Positions 1-7,958 of a DNA stretch of 64,000 nt are shown one piece after another. Every line of letters begins with the position of its first letter. Position 1 is the first letter of the stretch. The notes beneath the pieces were generated by a model. It saw only the letters and a program-made list of their open reading frames with translations. It had not been told where the DNA came from and ran no database searches. Position numbers and translations under genes: made by a program. This DNA is from Escherichia coli (GTDB taxonomy: Bacteria > Pseudomonadota > Gammaproteobacteria > Enterobacterales > Enterobacteriaceae), in assembly GCF_003018255.1 (NCBI RefSeq), contig NZ_CP027440.1; one strand, 5' to 3'.

Positions 1-512
1 TGTTTAATCTCCTGGCATTCTTCAGGAATACCCCCTTTTATTTCCCTGCCATAAGCGCCTACTTTAAACACCACGCACAGGGCATCACGGGAGAGCGACG
101 GGGTCCACCAGGAGTCCATGTTAAACATGGAGGGGATTCTCATTACCCCCAGCTTTTCACAGAGCCAGACAAGGAAATCAGGACGCTTTCTTAACTCGCG
201 TTCAGCGGCTTCAATCATTGCGGCAATCGCCGGTCCTTCAGGGCATGACTCATCAGGTCTGGCAATAAAGCACGGTCCGTCCCCGATAAAAGCCACATCA
301 TCGCGCTTACGCCAGCCCGCAGGCAGAGCACCAGAAAAATAAAACTCACTGATTACGTCCATGGCAAACGGCTTTAAGCGCAATCCGGCAGCGCCTGTAT
401 TTTTCAGTAATGCCCGAAGAATACTGTTGCGTAGCGGTAAAACAGTCTGTTGATATTTGGTGAAATATTTATTTGTCTGCACACGGTCTAATTTGAAATA
501 AAAATATGCCAT
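1..512 (-). CDS. hypothetical phage early protein, N-terminal ~170 codons only (3' end beyond window)
   Basis: Hand translation: ATG at 512-510 preceded by AAGGAACAGG Shine-Dalgarno; frame stays open to position 1. Not in the ORF track because it has no stop in the window. No family recognised. Confidence 0.45.
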   Translation of the reverse strand, partial: MAYFYFKLDRVQTNKYFTKYQQTVLPLRNSILRALLKNTGAAGLRLKPFAMDVISEFYFSGALPAGWRKRDDVAFIGDGPCFIARPDESCPEGPAIAAMIEAAERELRKRPDFLVWLCEKLGVMRIPSMFNMDSWWTPSLSRDALCVVFKVGAYGREIKGGIPEECQEIK

Positions 513-609
513 ATATCCTGTTCCTTATTTTCAGTTTACAGGCGCAGGCAGTCCCCTGACGCGAGCGCCATACTTAAAACGATGTGATATTTAAAGATTT
601 AATGCGGTG

Positions 610-1140
610 TTATTTATTCAGTCCGGCGTCCTGTTCAAAAGGCTCGACATAAAAACTTTCAGCGCCTTTATTCACCTTAATACCGGCAATGCCTTTCACT
701 GCATCCGGCTCCGCCAGGACCGCTTCCTTGTTCACTTCCTCTTTCGTGCGGATGAATCGCTCAAGCCCCATACGGCGCAGCATTTCAATCACACCTTCCA
801 CATCACGGCTGACGCTGCATGATGGATTTCCCAGCCGCCATGATACTGTTCCGGTGGTCAGATTGGCTGTTTTGGTTTTGCCGCCGTTCGTCAGCTCATC
901 GCGGTTGGTTTTGCACCAGTCCTGAATCCCCTTAAAAAGCACTTTGATTTCTTTTTTAAGGTTTTCAATCTGCGGCGTATAACGGGCGGTGATTTCTGCC
1001 ACTTCATCATTCATCGCCGTTTCCAGCCGCAGCGCCTCTCGCTGAATATCGCCCAGGGTACGGATATCGCGGCTGACTTCTTCGCGGGTCTGCGGTGCAG
1101 CCTCGGCTGCGGCCTTTAATTTTGTAACACGTTTAGCCAT
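610..1140 (-). CDS. gam: Gam-like host-nuclease inhibitor (Mu Gam family)
   Basis: 176 aa ORF; sequence (LETAMNDEVAEIT...NRDELTNGGKTKTANL...FIRTKEEVNKEA) closely parallels Mu Gam as recalled; AAGGA RBS upstream of ATG at 1140. Confidence 0.85.
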   Translation of the reverse strand: MAKRVTKLKAAAEAAPQTREEVSRDIRTLGDIQREALRLETAMNDEVAEITARYTPQIENLKKEIKVLFKGIQDWCKTNRDELTNGGKTKTANLTTGTVSWRLGNPSCSVSRDVEGVIEMLRRMGLERFIRTKEEVNKEAVLAEPDAVKGIAGIKVNKGAESFYVEPFEQDAGLNK

Positions 1141-1151
1141 TTTGTTTTTCC

Positions 1152-1445
1152 TTATTGCAGTGTGCCTGATGCTTTATGCACGCGGTGGCGTTTAATGATG
1201 GCATCCGCCCCAAAAGCCTGTACAGATGCCTGAAATTCCGCTGAGAGAAACTGAATAATTTCAGGACTGTGATACTGGAGAATACTTGCATAAACGTCAC
1301 AGAGTGACGTCGGCCTGTTATTCGTATCACGTTCTGTTTTTACATCCACACCAATCTTTTCATGCACTTCAACACAGTCATTGCCTGCCGGTTTTTCGTC
1401 ATGCGAAACATGCTTAAATTCAAAAATAACGCGTACTTTGCTCAT
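1152..1445 (-). CDS. hypothetical small protein (paralog A of a tandem pair)
   Basis: ORF track 1152..1472; likely start is the internal ATG at 1445 (MSKVRVIFEFKHV...) with AGGGG RBS; shares N-terminal motif and a C-terminal segment with the adjacent ORF. Confidence 0.5.
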   Translation of the reverse strand: MSKVRVIFEFKHVSHDEKPAGNDCVEVHEKIGVDVKTERDTNNRPTSLCDVYASILQYHSPEIIQFLSAEFQASVQAFGADAIIKRHRVHKASGTLQ

Positions 1446-1449
1446 GGAA

Positions 1450-1722
1450 TTACCCCTGCTGATTAAATTCATTACCTTTAATAACCCCGGAACGCATGCT
1501 CATATCTTTCATGAGCGCACTGGCTTTCATTGCCACAAGTTCAGCAAAGTCTCTGCTTTCCGCGAGCATAACCACCCCAAAAATCATGGCGGGTCCATCA
1601 CCTTTCTGCTTTATCCCGGTTGAACGTATGTCCAGACTTACCCCCATGCGCACTGTTCCATCAGCGTTTTTATGGATAACGTGCTCCTTGTATTCGAAAA
1701 TAATGCGTACGACTTTACTCAT
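1450..1722 (-). CDS. hypothetical small protein (paralog B of a tandem pair)
   Basis: 90 aa ORF starting MSKVVRIIFEYKEHV; GAGGA RBS; stop overlaps start of the next gene (4 bp), consistent with translational coupling in the early operon. Confidence 0.5.
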   Translation of the reverse strand: MSKVVRIIFEYKEHVIHKNADGTVRMGVSLDIRSTGIKQKGDGPAMIFGVVMLAESRDFAELVAMKASALMKDMSMRSGVIKGNEFNQQG

Positions 1723-2000
1723 CCTCTGGTCCTCGTTCTGTTTGGATAACTGACCCGGCGTCTGACCTCACGGCAGAACCGAATCATGGCATTAAAGGCT
1801 TCTTCCTCCGTCACCGCTTCCGGTATCCCCGGAACCAGTAACTGCTCCTGTTCATCACGTCCATGACGCGCCATAACCTCAATCACATGCCGTACCGTGG
1901 CAGGCTTTCCGGCAACTATCGGCAATGCACCTTCCGGCAGGACGTAACCAAACTCAATAAGACCACTCGACCACGCCCATGCAATGAGATTTTTTTTCAC
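1719..2000 (-). CDS. hypothetical small early protein (GTG start)
   Basis: 93 aa ORF in the tightly packed minus-strand operon; first codon is GTG; no recognisable family. Confidence 0.4.
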   Translation of the reverse strand: MKKNLIAWAWSSGLIEFGYVLPEGALPIVAGKPATVRHVIEVMARHGRDEQEQLLVPGIPEAVTEEEAFNAMIRFCREVRRRVSYPNRTRTRG

Positions 2001-2001
2001 C

Positions 2002-2256
2002 TCACACCTCCCAGTAAACCGTGCAGCCGCTGATGCGGGTGGCCTTCACACGGCGGCGCAGGCCGTTGGTCTGTATGGTGATTTCAATTTCACCGGTTCC
2101 CTGCACGTTGCCTACCGGCGGCGTGGTTTTCAGTGCAAAACGTTGCGGATAGCGCTTACTGCGTTCCAGTACCGCACCGGCAAGTTCGGTCAGACGGCGC
2201 GCGCTGTTCAGGGAGTCGAATAAATTCATTTTGTTACCGCAGGATTGCATATTCAT
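2002..2256 (-). CDS. hypothetical small early protein
   Basis: ORF track 2002..2268; ATG at 2256 has a GAGGTG RBS so is the preferred start; no recognisable family. Confidence 0.4.
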   Translation of the reverse strand: MNMQSCGNKMNLFDSLNSARRLTELAGAVLERSKRYPQRFALKTTPPVGNVQGTGEIEITIQTNGLRRRVKATRISGCTVYWEV

Positions 2257-2268
2257 ATAACACCTCAT

Positions 2269-2490
2269 TTAGCTGACTTGTTTCGCACCAACAGAACGGC
2301 ATATTCCGCTGTAAACGTCTGTCGCACCTTCGCGATCAAGTCCGGCAGATATCACCATTCGTGTGCGGTCATTAAATTCAAAAAGAAAATCGCCACATTC
2401 TTTATTTTCGGCCAGTGAAATCACCTTCACGTTATCGAAATTAACCAGGTAAAAGCGTCCGTAAATATCAGGAATATTAAATACCGCCAT
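2269..2490 (-). CDS. small early protein in the position of Mu kil (73-75 aa)
   Basis: ORF 2269..2496 immediately after the B homolog with a GTGA/TGA start-stop overlap; ATG at 2490 has an AGGTG RBS. Kil assignment is by position and size only. Confidence 0.4.
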   Translation of the reverse strand: MAVFNIPDIYGRFYLVNFDNVKVISLAENKECGDFLFEFNDRTRMVISAGLDREGATDVYSGICRSVGAKQVS

Positions 2491-2492
2491 AA

Positions 2493-3425
2493 TCACACCT
2501 GTGAGAGTAATTCAGGGTTGGTATAAACCTCTTTAAAGGCCGCATTAATATGTTTTTCTGTCAGCGCCGCGCCTTCACCGCTGGCGGTGAGCCACGCCTG
2601 GTTAAGCGTATGTGTCAGAACGCGTAACGCTCCCGGCTTTTCAGCGATAGCCTGCATGACGGCCAGCTCGGCCTCACCACTGATCCCCCACGCCCTGGCA
2701 ATGGCCAGCACATCCGCCTTTTTGGCCTTGCGAAGTTGTTTTGTACGGGCAAGACGGCTGAACAGGCGCGATAAATCATCAAAGGCGCGGCGTCCACCTT
2801 TAAACAATCCGCGCGGGTTACCAATAAGCACCATCCCGATCCCCGTGGCGTCCTGAATTGCCCGGAGTTGCTCCAGACCGTCAATACCAAGATGATCCGC
2901 CTCATCCACAATCACCAGTCCACGCGTTCCCATCAGGCGACGGCGGATGGCGCGGGATAATGCCCCTTTGTTCGCGCGGGTGTAATCAATCCCCAGCGCA
3001 TCGGCCAGCTCCAGCAGACACTCCGTGACGCTGGAGTGCGCGGGTGACAGGGTGATCATCCAGGTGTTTGGTTGCTCCTGGCAGTAATTACGGGCAGTGG
3101 CCGTTTTACCCACACCCGGTACGCCCACAATAACGTTAATACAGCCCATCAGACGAACCGCCTGAAACAGTGCGCGCAGCTCCTGGACTGTCTGCGTTTC
3201 CACAAACTGCGGCGGTTCCGGCAGTGCGCTTTGTTTATTCCAGTTCTCATACCAGGAACGCAGGGAAGCAGCCACAGCAGCGTTATCGCCTTTATATTTT
3301 CCCTTACGGAAAGCCGATAATGTGCCGTCGGAAATTCCCGCCTCTCTGGCGATGGCATACTGCGTCAGTACGCCGCCATCAATAAGTTCATCAATGGTCT
3401 TGATTACATCGTTAATATCAGTCAT
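2493..3425 (-). CDS. MuB-like transposition ATPase
   Basis: 310 aa; Walker A GVPGVGKT, and extended similarity to Mu B as recalled (PEPPQFVETQTV, LVIVDEADHL, KPGALR). Confidence 0.9.
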   Translation of the reverse strand: MTDINDVIKTIDELIDGGVLTQYAIAREAGISDGTLSAFRKGKYKGDNAAVAASLRSWYENWNKQSALPEPPQFVETQTVQELRALFQAVRLMGCINVIVGVPGVGKTATARNYCQEQPNTWMITLSPAHSSVTECLLELADALGIDYTRANKGALSRAIRRRLMGTRGLVIVDEADHLGIDGLEQLRAIQDATGIGMVLIGNPRGLFKGGRRAFDDLSRLFSRLARTKQLRKAKKADVLAIARAWGISGEAELAVMQAIAEKPGALRVLTHTLNQAWLTASGEGAALTEKHINAAFKEVYTNPELLSQV

Positions 3426-3496
3426 ATTATTAACCTCTCATTTGATACCTTGTTTAATCAAATAACCTGAGTCGCCGCTCGGGTTATTTTTTTATT

Positions 3497-5587
3497 TCAG
3501 GCCAGCGGGTCATTTTCTTTTAATTTCGCTTCCAGCAACTGCAATCCCCGCTGGAAATTACGCTCGTATTCTTCATCAGGTTCATCGTCAGCGACCGGTT
3601 GCTGAACGGTCACCGTATTACCCACAGGGCGGTATATGTTTTCCAGCCAGGGCTCCTGCGGCTTGTGCTCCAGCACGTTGACAACCTCATCCTCGGCATC
3701 ACGGATTTTTTCCTCTGCGCGTTTACGCATGCCTTTAAGGCGTTGCTGCTGTTTGTAGTATTCCGCGCTAACCGGGAAGGCTTCGCGTTTATTACCGTCC
3801 CATACCGCCTCGCAAATCACGCTGCCATCCAGGCGACGTACGGTAATTCGTTCGGCATCATGAATGTCATAGCTGATAAGCACCTTACGACCATGCTCGT
3901 CACGCAGCTCGGGCGCGTAGTAAATATTATTCAGCCAGCGTATTTCACAGCGTCTTACAGGGCGTTCCACCATCGGCCGGAACATATCCCGCAGCTCAAC
4001 ATCGGACAGCCATTCAATTTCCGTGTCCTCTTCCGCCAGGCGTTTTTTTCTGAACTCCGCCGGGCTGTAATGCTTGCCGTTCGGCTTCACCGGTAATTCA
4101 TCGTGCGGCCGGTTGTTGTACCACTCAACACCGTCACGAATGGCATCAATCAGTTCAGACCAGGACGGTAAATCACGCATCGCTGACTGCTGCCGGGCGT
4201 TCAGCCGTTTGCCCTGTTGCAGGGCAGTAAATGCCGAGCGTAAATCGCGGTTGGTTTTGCGTAACGTCTCGCGATCTGCACCTTTCCCGAAATAGGTGCG
4301 GTATTTACGGGCTATGCGCATCGGTAATGTGCGGTTAAGCCGTTCGATAATGCCTCGTCCCTGCGGATTACCGGCAATCCCGGTCGGGTGATTAATCCCC
4401 AGTCGCGGCAGTATCCCCACAACCTCCTTATCCAGGATGTCGGCGGTTTCCCCGGAGCCGTTATCCGAGTAATACAGAAACGGTTTGCCGTGATGGCGAA
4501 TGCCGTGCTGTATGGCACCGGCTACGGCGAAAACATTTTCAGCCAGGTCAAGGCTCCAGCCCACCACAAAGCGCGTGCCACCGTCGATAACAAAGGTCAC
4601 TTCCGGTGCAAATGGCCGACCGTGAACCGGGTGTGCGCATTTCAGCTTCATGCCGTGACCGTCACCAATCCAGACATAATTCACCGGCATTCTGGACCAG
4701 TCGCGGCGCGTGAATCCCTCAAGCTGGCGGTATTCACTGCCGGTCACCCGGCCTTTTTGTTTCACCACTTCCGGCAGTTTCTTCATTGCGCGGCGAATGG
4801 TGTCATAAGACGGCATGATATCGAGCATATAAGGCTCATCAGCGTGCCGGTGCTGCCATTCAGCGACAAAATCCTCGTAAGCCTCGGTCATTGGTCGGCC
4901 GTTTGACTGGCGATACTGCGCCAGAAATTCGGGCAGCCAGTTAATATCTTCAGCTTTTATTTCCTGGCGCTTACCCGGTGCCAGTAAAAGCAGGCGTTCA
5001 GCGGCGTTCTGCGCCTTGTTAAAGGCCGCAATCCAGCGTTTCAGCGTTATTTCACTCAACGCACGGCTGTTTCCCTTTTTGGCGTTCGCCGTCTCAACCA
5101 TTGCCACAATGCGCTCGTCCAGTTGCGAACGTGCCAGGTTGTCAACGATAAACCGGATAGCTTTCGCACAGCTGAAACCGGGTTGTTGCGCGACTTTCAT
5201 CACTTCGCTGACGATCGCAATTCGTGCATCAGCCACCTGGCGCTGGTTTTCAGTCAGGGCATTAAGGCGTTCAACCATCAGTTGTGGTGATCCGCGATAT
5301 GCCTCCACCGCATCAACCACGGCAGGCGAGCGTCTGGCCTTTGTCACCACCGGAGCCGGTGATTCATCAGCTTTTTGCGTCATCAGTTGAAGGGCATAAC
5401 GTTCACGCAATACTTGTTGCGCGCCAGAAGGCAAACAATCGATATTAAATTCGATTGCTTTTGTCCCCTTACGTTTGCGTAACATGGCTGCATTTCCCGC
5501 AGCTGCTTTTGTGAGTCGATGGCGAATGTTATGTTCCATCATTGGTAAATCAGGAAGACCAACACATTCTTTTGCTGTTACCCACAT
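3497..5587 (-). CDS. MuA-like DDE transposase
   Basis: 696 aa; N-terminus MWVTAKECVGLPDLP parallels Mu A MELWVSPKECANLPGLP; candidate catalytic D-D-E residues in WIGDGHG, YYSDNGSGE and GIIERLN; GGGGGA RBS. Confidence 0.9.
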   Translation of the reverse strand: MWVTAKECVGLPDLPMMEHNIRHRLTKAAAGNAAMLRKRKGTKAIEFNIDCLPSGAQQVLRERYALQLMTQKADESPAPVVTKARRSPAVVDAVEAYRGSPQLMVERLNALTENQRQVADARIAIVSEVMKVAQQPGFSCAKAIRFIVDNLARSQLDERIVAMVETANAKKGNSRALSEITLKRWIAAFNKAQNAAERLLLLAPGKRQEIKAEDINWLPEFLAQYRQSNGRPMTEAYEDFVAEWQHRHADEPYMLDIMPSYDTIRRAMKKLPEVVKQKGRVTGSEYRQLEGFTRRDWSRMPVNYVWIGDGHGMKLKCAHPVHGRPFAPEVTFVIDGGTRFVVGWSLDLAENVFAVAGAIQHGIRHHGKPFLYYSDNGSGETADILDKEVVGILPRLGINHPTGIAGNPQGRGIIERLNRTLPMRIARKYRTYFGKGADRETLRKTNRDLRSAFTALQQGKRLNARQQSAMRDLPSWSELIDAIRDGVEWYNNRPHDELPVKPNGKHYSPAEFRKKRLAEEDTEIEWLSDVELRDMFRPMVERPVRRCEIRWLNNIYYAPELRDEHGRKVLISYDIHDAERITVRRLDGSVICEAVWDGNKREAFPVSAEYYKQQQRLKGMRKRAEEKIRDAEDEVVNVLEHKPQEPWLENIYRPVGNTVTVQQPVADDEPDEEYERNFQRGLQLLEAKLKENDPLA

Positions 5588-5597
5588 ACATCCCCCA

Positions 5598-5864
5598 TCA
5601 AGCCACTTCTCTGGCGTCCACCTGGTATCTGCTGGGCCAGATTACAGCAGGTTCAACCCCTATTTTTTCGGCGATGGCGGCTTCGTATTTACGGCACTGG
5701 CGGTAAAACACATTGCGCATTGATCCGCTTTTTAATCCTAACTCCCTTTCCAGTTCAGGGAGGTCTGTGCCTTTGTTTTCAAGGGCTGCATATACCGCTT
5801 TAGCAGACCAGTCACACCCCTCTCGAACAAACAAATTATTCGATGCTTGTCTGGATACCCTCAT
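5598..5864 (-). CDS. Ner-like DNA-binding regulator
   Basis: 88 aa; C-terminal VIWPSRYQ and overall alignment to Mu Ner as recalled; AGAGGA RBS; first gene of the early operon. Confidence 0.8.
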   Translation of the reverse strand: MRVSRQASNNLFVREGCDWSAKAVYAALENKGTDLPELERELGLKSGSMRNVFYRQCRKYEAAIAEKIGVEPAVIWPSRYQVDAREVA

Positions 5865-6020
5865 TGTGTGATCCTCTCATGTTTACCTGAACCGATAATC
5901 AAAACCGGTTATCGATTTAGGTAAATCATAATCGCAAAATAATTCGATATCAACGGTTTTTTGCGAGCATATCGAAATTAAATGCGATGTCGATAATTTC
6001 TTTGTTTTATAGGGGGTTAT
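5865..6020. promoter_or_regulatory. divergent immunity/early control region (operators and promoters between ner and repressor)
   Basis: 156 bp AT-rich intergenic region between divergent genes with at least five copies of a CGATA/TATCG half-site (e.g. CGATAA at 5893 and 5991, TTATCG at 5909) in direct and inverted orientation. Confidence 0.55.
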
Positions 6021-6632
6021 ATGGATAAGGCAGAAAAAACCGTATCCAGTGCGGAACGGTTTATTGATATGGAAGGAATAAACCGATTTTCAGAACGCTT
6101 AGCTATGGCTATGGGAAACATGACAAACGTCGAACTGGCGACCCTTTGTGGACTATCTGAAGCCACAGTAAGAAATTACAGGAAGGGGAAAAACTTCCCT
6201 CCTTTGGATAAACTGGCCTTAATAGCTAAAGCCTGTAATTGTTCACTCGAATGGTTGGCCACAGGCAAGAACGAAGATGAATGCGGAAAAATCGAAAACA
6301 ATTGCGATTCAGGTTCGGGTATTGATCAGGCGCTTAGCTCTCTAAGCCCCCAAGAGAAGCAATTAATCCTTACATTCATCAGGCGAGAAGGTACTAATAA
6401 CCTTGTCAGGCTGGCAGCAATGAATACATCTACAATCAGCCAGGATGCGGTAGAAAGCATCATTGATGCCTTGCCATTACGTCCCGTACTAAAAAATGCA
6501 ATAAAGATAGGAATGGCGGGAAGTGAAGAAACAGACAAAGAGATTTTGCGCGTTATTGAGAAGTACAACTCGAGCAATAACGCCACCCAGGAATCAGGGG
6601 CAGTGACAGTAAAGAAAAATGTTGTTGGTTAA
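6021..6632 (+). CDS. prophage repressor, cI/XRE-type helix-turn-helix
   Basis: 203 aa; N-terminal HTH (ELATLCGLSEATVRNYRKGKNFPPLDKLALIAKACNCSLEWL); transcribed divergently from ner toward the prophage end as in Mu c; AGGGGG RBS. Not similar to Mu c itself. Confidence 0.7.
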   Translation: MDKAEKTVSSAERFIDMEGINRFSERLAMAMGNMTNVELATLCGLSEATVRNYRKGKNFPPLDKLALIAKACNCSLEWLATGKNEDECGKIENNCDSGSGIDQALSSLSPQEKQLILTFIRREGTNNLVRLAAMNTSTISQDAVESIIDALPLRPVLKNAIKIGMAGSEETDKEILRVIEKYNSSNNATQESGAVTVKKNVVG

Positions 6633-6776
6633 GCGCCATCGCTATCATGAGGTGGTGCTGTAAATACATATAGAGATCATATGACTCATCCCAAGATAAT
6701 CACGCTATTGAATAGTAATTCATGATGATTATCATACTGATTATAGTTAGATCGATTATGTGAGCATTTTGGCAGT

Positions 6777-6810
6777 TTGAAGATGTTTTGAAGATGTTTT
6801 GAAGAAGATT
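6777..6810. repeat. tandem direct repeats (TTGAAGATGTT x2 plus a variant) in attL, candidate internal transposase-binding sites
   Basis: Seen directly: TTGAAGATGTT TTGAAGATGTT TTGAAGAAGATT about 100-135 bp from the inferred end, similar spacing to Mu L2/L3. Confidence 0.45.
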
Positions 6811-6890
6811 TTAAGGGTAAATTAGCAGTATCAAATGTGTCGCCGTTTTTTGATCTTTTGACTATTTGTTGAGCAGTCGGTATCAAAAAG

Positions 6891-6912
6891 AGTTTTCCGT
6901 CCGAAGTATACA
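6891..6912. repeat. terminal transposase-binding site and prophage left end
   Basis: Reverse complement TGTATACTTCGGACGGAAAACT resembles the Mu terminal site (TGTAT...ACGAAAA) and ends in the TG/CA dinucleotide. Confidence 0.5.
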
Positions 6913-6981
6913 TCACCTGTTTTATTTCAGCATCTTACAGGTGATTTCACCTCCTTTCACTAAAACCCTTGTCGGTATCAA

Positions 6982-7311
6982 ATGATTCACCTGGTTACAA
7001 ACGATGGATTGATTGATAACCTGCCACAAGGATGTTGCGTGGAAGTAGCCTGTCTGGTTGATGCTAATGGCATTCAGCCGACCAAAGTCGGTACGTTACC
7101 TTCGCATCTGGCCGCCCTGATGCAAACCAACATCAACGTACAGACGCTGCTGACCGAAGCCATTCTTACGGAAAATCGCGACCGTGTTTACCACGCTGCG
7201 ATGATGGACCCGCATACTGCCGCCGTGCTGGGCATTGATGAAATATATGCTCTTGTTGACGACCTGATTGCCGCCCACGGCGACTGGCTGCCAGGCTGGT
7301 TGCACCGTTAA
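6982..7311 (+). pseudogene. melA: melA 3' fragment (alpha-galactosidase, glycoside hydrolase family 4 C-terminus)
   Basis: 109 aa ORF with GH4 C-terminal motifs (NDGLIDNLP...VEVACLVD...MMDPHTAA); in-frame stop 7 codons upstream at 6961, so the 5' part of the gene is absent. Confidence 0.6.
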
Positions 7312-7958
7312 GGGGTAATCGCTTCCGGCGCTCTGGTGATTAAGCCAAAGCGCCGTAGCTGGCGGCAATGAAAGCGAGCGAGGAATATCACCGTCGTTAA
7401 TGCGCCAAGCAGCGCGCAGAACATATCGGATTGCGTGTCCCACTGGTCGCCCTGGGTGCCGAGAAAATCATCCGCTCCCTGACCCATTGCCAGCGCCGCC
7501 CACCACTCGATTAATTCATACATCGCGCTTATCGCCAGCGCCACGCAGCAGACCAGAAACGCCACCATCTTATGTCCGTGAACGTACATCCCGCGCACAA
7601 GGATCTCTCGTGCCACCAGTGCAGGCACCAGCCCCTGGAAAAAATGTCCCAGTTTGTCATACGGATTACGGCTCAACCCCAGCCATTCCTGCACCTCAAA
7701 ACCAACGGGGACTTTCGCGTAGGTGTATTGTCCGCCGACCATCAGGATGATGGCGTGAAAGAAAATGAGCGTATAGAGCAGCGGCGTTAACGGATAACGT
7801 TTAGCGGTGGCAAGCAGTAGCGGCACGACAATAATCACCGGTGTCACTTCCATCAGCCAGGTGAGTTTGTCATTGGCCGAAATGCCGGTATAAATCAGGA
7901 TTAACGTTAGCGCCAGTGCGCCGGTGTTAAGAATTAACGGCTTGAGTGTGCGGGTCAT
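7308..7958 (-). CDS. yjdF: inner membrane protein YjdF
   Basis: 216 aa hydrophobic ORF in the K-12 position next to fumB. Confidence 0.75.
   Translation of the reverse strand: MTRTLKPLILNTGALALTLILIYTGISANDKLTWLMEVTPVIIVVPLLLATAKRYPLTPLLYTLIFFHAIILMVGGQYTYAKVPVGFEVQEWLGLSRNPYDKLGHFFQGLVPALVAREILVRGMYVHGHKMVAFLVCCVALAISAMYELIEWWAALAMGQGADDFLGTQGDQWDTQSDMFCALLGALTTVIFLARFHCRQLRRFGLITRAPEAITP

Follow-up and report, generated by a model that had tools for sequence, protein, structure and literature searches.

A repressor with a cI/XRE head and a Mu c-type C-terminal domain, and candidate sites in its control region, at the left end of a Mu-like prophage of Escherichia coli

Introduction

The switch of bacteriophage Mu is the textbook case in which the same DNA is both operator and transposition enhancer, owing to a DNA-binding domain shared by the repressor and the transposase; the C-terminal region of the Mu repressor (c, or Rep) serves, among other things, oligomerisation. 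The N-terminal I-alpha domain of MuA binds the enhancer (PMC3362531), Rep and MuA are homologous according to references given in PMC3820752, and Rep is degraded by ClpXP via a C-terminal recognition determinant (PMC10584840). In this study we characterized the corresponding region of an Escherichia coli prophage (assembly GCF_003018255.1, contig NZ_CP027440.1) within a stretch of 64,000 nucleotides, hereafter the window, positions 1-6999 of which are, by gene content and by their shared end, the left (repressor) end of a Mu-like transposable prophage on the minus strand. We consider it a little better than even, roughly 55%, that this locus is a hybrid switch, in which a repressor with a cI/XRE head and a Mu c-type tail acts at two 14-bp elements (Oa and Ob), a palindrome (I1) serves Ner, and the head of the transposase is uncoupled from that of the repressor.

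The locus agrees with Mu and D108 (c - O1-O3 - ner - A - B) in the gene order and orientation of the left end, in a switch about 1 kb from that end, in divergent repressor and ner genes with a dyad just upstream of ner, in MuA-like and MuB-like genes, and in a repressor C-terminal domain of the Mu c family with a lysine-rich tail. It differs from them in the repressor head, which is a cI/XRE helix-turn-helix (HTH) and not the winged helix common to Mu c and MuA, in operators that cannot be Mu-type repeats, and in a transposase N-terminus without a matching repressor head. The Pseudomonas D3112/B3 group also has a cI/XRE repressor at the left end, divergent from a ner-like gene, and for one of its members, Fc02, a lambda CI-like N-terminal domain of RepC has been described (PMC9936078). 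In isolated phages, tblastn found the nearest heads in cI-like repressors of Pseudomonas transposable phages of the D3112 type (44% identity, residues 15-82), so cI-type repressors in Mu-like phages, as in the D3112/B3 group, were already known, and the locus is otherwise an ordinary phage immunity region. However, the similarity to that group ends after the HTH (33% of the query covered), the C-terminal half of the window repressor being Mu-c-type, and at least one repressor of the group (phage F_HA0480sp/Pa1651) is annotated as peptidase S24-like, unlike the one studied here.

Repressor of the prophage

A first-pass annotation of this DNA had proposed that the repressor carries a cI/XRE HTH instead of the winged helix of Mu c and MuA, that it has no LexA-like peptidase, and that the Mu c head is related to the MuA N-terminus, and each of these proposals was borne out. 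Pfam Phage_CI_repr (1.6e-9, residues 25-85, 38.4 bits, cut-off 22) and HTH_3 (4.1e-9, 36.8 bits, cut-off 23) match above their curated thresholds and place the protein in the cI/XRE (Cro/C1-type) HTH repressor family, in agreement with PHROG (Table 1) and with the fold: the AlphaFold2 model of the HTH has a predicted local distance difference test (pLDDT) of ~85-91 over residues ~21-80, and Foldseek of the full-length model against viral models matched only HTH/cI phage repressors. The Mu-type winged helix HTH_Tnp_Mu_1 (PF02316) gave no Pfam match on the repressor, and the hidden Markov model (HMM) search found no Peptidase_S24 match up to an E of 0.1; the protein, whose C-terminal half is all-helical, is not of the LexA-like self-cleaving cI type. 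The heads of Mu c and MuA align at 40.6% identity (2e-16). The NCBIfam search with the repressor found no family above threshold, and its RefSeq name is 'helix-turn-helix domain-containing protein'. Besides those of the D3112-type phages, the nearest heads include that of Klebsiella phage Kp4866-3 (32% identity, residues 12-145).

The C-terminal domain, which the same annotation had left as one of unknown function, can be placed in the Mu c C-terminal family through three bridging proteins, P0105, P0097 and P0071; this route was taken because direct comparisons of the window repressor with Mu c were not significant (BLASTP E 2.2, hhalign ~0.06, HMM 0.015). A profile of the domain retrieved only 43 representatives among 1.84 billion proteins, most of them XRE-headed, and the Mu-type head PF02316 was found on the relatives P0071 (4.8e-13), P0086 (1.5e-7) and P0097 (2e-14). 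The C-terminal half of P0071 is 54% identical to that of the window repressor (9e-25), and P0071 resembles Mu c in its head (3e-8). For P0097, the alignment with Mu c is full-length (7e-12) and also holds for the C-terminal domains alone (1e-7); P0097 aligns with the first half of the window C-terminal domain as well (6e-8). Moreover, the C-terminal columns of the Mu c profile, used by themselves, match the C-terminal half of the XRE-headed P0105 (2.9e-11, collinear in both halves), to which the window repressor is 40% identical over residues 1-152 (8e-39). By transitive homology, the repressor C-terminal domain belongs to the Mu c C-terminal family; the protein has the C-terminal domain and the lysine-rich tail of the Mu c (Rep) family and lacks its winged helix. 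The two-domain hybrid nature of the repressor is thereby shown at the level of homology, and across the alignments XRE or Mu winged-helix heads and C-terminal subtypes are shuffled in all four combinations.

Besides the insignificant direct comparisons, two further points weigh against the placement of the C-terminal domain: its structural model is weak, with a predicted template modelling score (pTM) of 0.33, and residues ~140-190 are linked to Mu c only via a short ALP...EIL motif. AlphaFold2 gives the domain a pLDDT of 60-80 over residues 98-190, and the model of the domain alone found no match in PDB (E at least 1.6). The direct alignments with Mu c, weak as they are, have the same register.

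Four members of the C-terminal-domain family (P0077, P0080, P0095 and P0098) are 300-330 aa long. Their layout suggests two tandem XRE-type HTHs before the shared C-terminal domain, for which there is partial Pfam support in P0077 and P0095.

Table 1. Features of the prophage left end, in coordinates of the 64,000-nucleotide window
Feature	Position	Strand	Details
Repressor gene (203 aa)	6021..6632	+	Ribosome-binding site AGGGGG 6011-6016; PHROG 3037 'transcriptional repressor' full length, 3.3e-59
cI/XRE HTH domain, residues ~22-85	6084..6275	+	Recognition helix SEATVRNYRKGK; Pfam, AlphaFold2, Foldseek
Variable disordered linker, residues ~86-97	6276..6311	+	pLDDT <50 at residues 87-98; length and sequence vary across family alignment
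All-helical C-terminal domain (residues ~98-190) and disordered tail ...VKKNVVG	6312..6629	+	Six predicted helices
Divergent control region, 156 bp, 34% G+C	5865..6020		Between ner start 5864 (-) and repressor start 6021 (+)
Candidate early promoter Pe	-35 TTGATA 5953..5948; -10 TATGAT 5930..5925	-	17-nt spacer; 10/12 consensus positions; reads into ner-A-B
Element Oa, candidate repressor operator	5933..5946		CGCAAAATAATTCG (CG-N10-CG, 14 bp); Pe spacer positions 2-15
Element Ob, candidate second repressor operator	5973..5986		CGAAATTAAATGCG (14 bp); 40 bp from Oa
Palindrome I1	5882..5925		TTTACCTGAACCGATAA N10 TTATCGATTTAGGTAAA; 44 bp; core GATAATC-N6-GGTTATC 5894-5913; holds CGATA motifs 1 and 2
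CGATA motifs 1-5	5893-5897, 5910-5914, 5945-5949, 5970-5974, 5991-5995	+, -, +, -, +	Alternating strands; pattern count
ner-like gene (88 aa)	5598..5864	-	Pfam HTH_35 1.7e-20; PHROG 769 2.5e-28
MuA-like transposase gene (696 aa)	3497..5587	-	Mu-transpos_C 1.5e-17; HTH_Tnp_Mu_1 4.2e-5
Mu-type winged-helix (I-alpha-like) domain, transposase residues ~2-63	5399-5584	-	HTH_Tnp_Mu_1 24.3 bits, cut-off 23.3
MuB-like ATPase gene	2493..3425	-	Phage-MuB_C 2.5e-25; AAA_22 4.1e-18
Prophage left end (c-end)	6633..6999		Terminates ...GGTTACA at 6999; inserted in melA

Control region

We compared the window with eleven related loci, twelve in all, which form four groups by the recognition helix of the repressor: group A (SEATVRNYRKGK; the window, L009, L011, L013, L014 and L020), group B (SETTIRKYLQGK; L016, L017 and L023), group C (TEATIRNYRKGK; L018 and L167) and group D (SEATIRKYIAGK; L022). 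Eight distant loci (29-47% identity), obtained by a profile search of genome contigs with the repressor alignment, were left unused. The repressor gene on the plus strand diverges from ner-A-B on the minus strand in 12/12 loci, and in the window the 156-bp control region lies between the ner-like and repressor open reading frames, as the first-pass annotation had it. The comparison establishes the layout of this region, and the proteins named below as binding its parts are candidates.

On the ner strand, a -35 of the form TTGxxx is followed after a 17-nt spacer by a -10 TAxxxT in all twelve loci; the distance of this layout from ner is constant in 11 of them and 12 nt greater in L167. A CG-N10-CG 14-mer stands in the Oa register of that spacer (positions 2-15) in 12/12 loci, with a sequence that goes with the group: CGCAAAATAATYCG in group A, CGAACAATAATCCG in groups B and D, and CGAAATAAAATCCG or CGAAGCAAAATTCG in group C. 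The window, L018 and L167 have a second CG-N10-CG at a distance of exactly 40 bp, and L023 has one at 31 bp; that of L018 is a perfect palindrome, CGAAATTAATTTCG. Groups B and D have an inverted second copy at 30-31 bp (11-12 of 14 positions matching, p ~0.003), and AACAA occurs in both of their sites (helix K), whereas the interior is A/T-only in groups A and C (helix N). The pattern CG[ACT][AT]8[AGT]CG is present at only three places in the 64 kb, 5440, 5933 and 5973, and the Ob 14-mer is unchanged in close variants with altered flanks in which CGATA motif 4 is lost. Size and partial symmetry, which suit an HTH dimer of the Cro/cI type, the place of one element in the Pe spacer, conserved spacing and group-linked sequence together make Oa and Ob the best candidates for the repressor operators.

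Several observations count against this assignment. The Oa of groups A and B differ at only two or three of 14 positions, and Oa could be the site of a conserved protein rather than of the immunity-specific repressor; Oa and Ob of the window match at 9/14, which is not significant alone; and in five Salmonella group-A loci Ob lacks the second CG.

The closest described sites are presumably those of the 434/P22 type, with which Oa and Ob share the length of 14 bp, partial symmetry, CGAA/TTCG-like outer 4-bp half-sites and an AT-rich centre; they differ in being two candidate sites 40 bp apart, one of them inside the promoter spacer, where the 434/P22 type has three adjacent sites. The third CG-N10-CG, CGATATTAAATTCG at 5440-5453 in the transposase gene, matches Ob at 12/14 positions and was rejected as an operator: its letters are those of the codons for IEFNID, at which relatives differ in the synonymous positions, and the match is probably a coincidence of coding.

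Each of the two 14-mers also lies in one arm of a larger dyad, I2 (5931-5988; 20-nt arms, 75% complementary, 18 nt between them), which is centred just upstream of the Pe -35. A perfect 8-nt pair, TCGCAAAA (5932-5939) and TTTTGCGA (5959-5966), persists in 4/6 group-A loci with no more than one base altered; the corresponding stretch of group B reads CGAACAA / TTGTTCG. For the repressor gene, no promoter candidate above the scan threshold was found on the plus strand upstream of 6021; by eye, TTTAGG(5915)-17 nt-AATAAT(5938) is a conserved but weak candidate. An IHF-like site noticed by eye near 5948-5960 was dropped, since it is not conserved across loci.

The part of the control region next to ner follows a different pattern. 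The arms of I1 (5882-5898 / 5909-5925) are 17 nt long and 88% complementary (p ~0.005 vs shuffles), and the I1 core is found in 12/12 loci, whichever recognition-helix group they belong to. In L011, L020 and L023 the outer arms, corresponding to window 5882-5888 and 5919-5925, read TTTATCT...AGATAAA in place of TTTACCT...AGGTAAA, a matched change in three loci of two repressor groups, and a change in one arm only occurs in none. Within group A the I1 segment is 88-95% identical, the ner coding sequence 74-83% and the repressor-proximal region 66-73%. L016 has a Ner 99% identical to that of the window and an I1 with one change, beside a repressor head of 43% identity and a control region that is unrelated to the window's to the right of ~5926; this pattern puts I1 on the ner side of a recombination junction. 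In addition, I1 lies 18-61 bp upstream of the ner ATG, directly upstream of ner in the Pe leader, and the Mu dyad, which we take to be the Ner site, lies 35-76 bp upstream of its ner; both have a 6-nt gap. The Ner alignment across relatives has an invariant G.MRNVFYR. Conservation of the core in twelve loci whatever the recognition helix suggests that I1 is a Ner operator, or perhaps a site for the transposase, and by analogy with Mu we regard it as most likely the Ner operator in the Pe leader.

The E, T and R of the recognition helix, common to every repressor group, tell against this reading of I1, since a repressor site shared by all groups could then lie within it. A second objection is that none of the loci examined separates Ner from the transposase N-terminus in inheritance, so that I1 could equally be a transposase or enhancer site. 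On the corresponding rival explanation, I1, alone or with the Pe core, would be the transposition enhancer for the Mu-type N-terminus of the transposase, not, or not only, a Ner operator, and would be separate from the repressor operators. The transposase N-terminal domain goes with I1 as tightly as Ner does, and it passes the Pfam threshold for a Mu DNA-binding domain; L021 and L027, whose Ner is of another type, differ likewise in the transposase N-terminus and have a different control region without I1; and the control region lies ~1 kb from the left end, like the Mu enhancer. Ner and the transposase are, however, inseparable with the loci at hand. Immediately upstream of the Mu ner, at what we take to be the Ner site, the layout is likewise a strict dyad with a gap of 6 nt, and to our knowledge the Mu enhancer is not a single palindrome. 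We regard the enhancer explanation as doubtful, and a Ner operator as the preferred function of I1.

Among the loci, L167 (IMGVR_UViG_2896227970_000003, group C) has a 13-14-bp insertion inside I1 that includes an extra GATAATC half-site; it keeps a TATAATC-N6-GATTATC core, and Pe and both 14-mers are shifted equally, with the 40-bp spacing held. A metagenome scan with the 15-mer ATTGTGTGATCCTCT gave 120 chance matches, none with a ner-like gene, the pattern being too short for that collection.

The first-pass annotation had described at least five CGATAA/TTATCG motifs in the control region and read them as one repressor operator array that should recur in homologous elements. Five CGATA pentamers are there, and only three of the five are the named hexamer, the other two being CGATAT/ATATCG. 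CGATA occurs 187 times on both strands of the 64-kb window, that is ~0.44 expected per 156 nt, and the control region is the sole 156-nt stretch of the window with five copies (Poisson p ~1e-4 from the window-wide frequency; p ~0.003 vs a first-order Markov model of the local 34% G+C sequence). The enrichment is real but moderate, and ATCGA/TCGAT is slightly more enriched (5 observed vs 0.32 expected), so CGATA is not the sole reading of the pattern. Absence of the repeats from homologous elements, which that annotation had given as a refutation, is seen in part: motifs 1 and 2 recur and motifs 3-5 are mostly absent. The repressors of the five Salmonella group-A loci have HTH helices 2-3 identical to those of the window repressor. 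All five of these loci retain motifs 1 and 2, one (L020) retains motif 3, and neither motif 4 nor motif 5 occurs in any of them; L033, a near-identical variant found among viral contigs, has lost motif 4. Groups B, C and D, with their different recognition helices, likewise retain motifs 1 and 2. Motif 3 overlaps the Pe -35 hexamer TTGATA and takes in the CG at the end of Oa; motifs 4 and 5 flank Ob, motif 4 overlapping its left edge and motif 5 (5991-5995) lying just to its right, and are labile. The cluster is thus probably composite, its motifs belonging to at least two different binding sites.

Two other accounts of the cluster survive less well than this one. The first takes it as functionless, a chance by-product of an AT-rich region with a few conserved CpG-containing elements and promoter hexamers. 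The p-value against local composition is only ~0.003, with 512 strand-collapsed pentamers to choose from, three of the five motifs are evolutionarily labile, and motif 3 is explained by the -35 TTGATA followed by CG; however, the palindrome that holds motifs 1 and 2 is clearly under purifying selection, which makes these two, at the least, parts of a functional site, and we judge the account improbable. Improbable too is the array as first proposed, with all five CGATA(A/T) as half-sites bound by the XRE repressor from ner to the repressor gene: the local enrichment, the strands alternating + - + - +, the resemblance of CGATAA to the outer halves of the 14-mers (CGCAAA, CGAAAT) and a common core contact such as CGA, which the shared E, T and R could provide, are outweighed by the loss of motifs 4 and 5, and of motif 3 outside L020, under identical helices 2-3, by the persistence of motifs 1 and 2 beside other helices and on the ner side of the recombination junction, and by a hexamer spacing of 10 bp in I1 vs 2 bp in the 14-mers, which misfits one dimer geometry.

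Transposase N-terminus and a possible enhancer

The transposase has at its N-terminus the Mu-type winged helix that the repressor lacks. PHROG 7148, a Mu-type repressor family, matches transposase residues 2-63 (5.1e-6), and the sole local match of this N-terminus is the Mu-c-type repressor P0065 (BLASTP 3.7e-6); it shows no similarity to the repressor of its own locus, and a search for a Mu-type repressor head matching it returned only four transposase fragments. In L027, by contrast, the transposase N-terminus is 55% identical to that locus's own repressor (2e-17); from residue 100 onward, the L027 transposase shares 77% identity with that of the window. L021 combines another XRE head with a clearly Mu-type transposase N-terminus, without similarity between the two. 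Across the loci, the transposase N-terminus travels with ner and I1 rather than with the repressor head.

The sibling prophages L027 (repressor P0071) and L021 (repressor P0043, its C-terminal domain 57% identical to the window's) share the repressor C-terminal domain with the window, and L027 also shares the transposase backbone; L027 differs in its Mu-type cassette with matching repressor and transposase heads. In L027 (3322-4127, 1020-3107) the repressor head, control region, ner and the first ~70 transposase residues form a Mu-type set swapped as a block, with the window-type repressor C-terminal domain and transposase core kept and the recombination joints inside both genes.

From these patterns, the conserved DNA near ner is a likelier place for any enhancer here than the immunity-specific part, and competition between repressor and transposase, if it occurs, could only be steric. 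Further, we propose, tentatively and with the odds some way against the whole, that the Mu rule of repressor and transposase competing via homologous heads is broken here: the transposase would recognise I1 and the Pe core, the XRE repressor would act only on transcription, via the 14-mers, enhancer access would be under Ner control or lost, and the enhancer, Ner and the transposase would make up a fixed module on which an immunity module, formed by the head together with the right half of the control region, could be freely exchanged.

In RefSeq the transposase begins at Met17 (680 aa), without the 16 residues MWVTAKECVGLPDLPM (window 5539-5587, minus strand). These residues are conserved in all related loci and are part of the Mu-type winged-helix domain, and the longer open reading frame from 5587, 10 nt after the ner stop, probably has the real start.

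Proposed switch

In the hybrid switch that we favour, the C-terminal domain would hold repressor subunits together and the lysine-rich tail would make the repressor a target of a protease, which in Mu is ClpXP; induction would then proceed via proteolysis or unfolding and not via RecA-driven self-cleavage. The repressor on Oa and Ob, bridged through its C-terminal domains, would shut Pe, Ner would bind I1 in the Pe leader, and CGATA motifs 3-5 would be by-products of the Pe -35 hexamer and the edges of the 14-mers. The transposase head no longer resembles that of the repressor, so the two would not compete through homologous heads as in Mu. It weighs against the scheme as a whole that every assignment of a protein to a site in it is deduced from sequence comparison.

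Such prophages are common in pathogenic E. coli and Salmonella, and they offer natural domain swaps, with the same repressor tail joined to a Mu-type or an XRE head and the same transposase core joined to matched or unmatched N-termini. These swaps allow a direct test of whether shared heads are needed for immunity and enhancer function, and of whether ClpXP-dependent induction is a property of the Mu-type C-terminal domain whatever the head.

Genomic setting

The element has the marks of a Mu-like prophage, with ner, MuA-type and MuB-type genes beside a phage end and copies at many chromosomal sites. When the 1.6-kb left-end segment (window 5400-7000) was compared across E. coli genomes, a near-identical full-length copy was found in 33 complete genomes, in varied chromosomal places; similarity to the other copies stops at 6999 (...GGTTACA), and different host genes flank each copy. 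In the window, 7000-7308 encode the last 102 residues of alpha-galactosidase (melA), which is interrupted by the element. In E. coli K-12 melB presumably lies between melA and yjdF; no melB-sized open reading frame is present in window 7000-7958, and its lack could be a deletion beside the insertion or a feature of the lineage. Within the same interval, the melA stop overlaps the end of a convergent yjdF-like gene (PRK09867).

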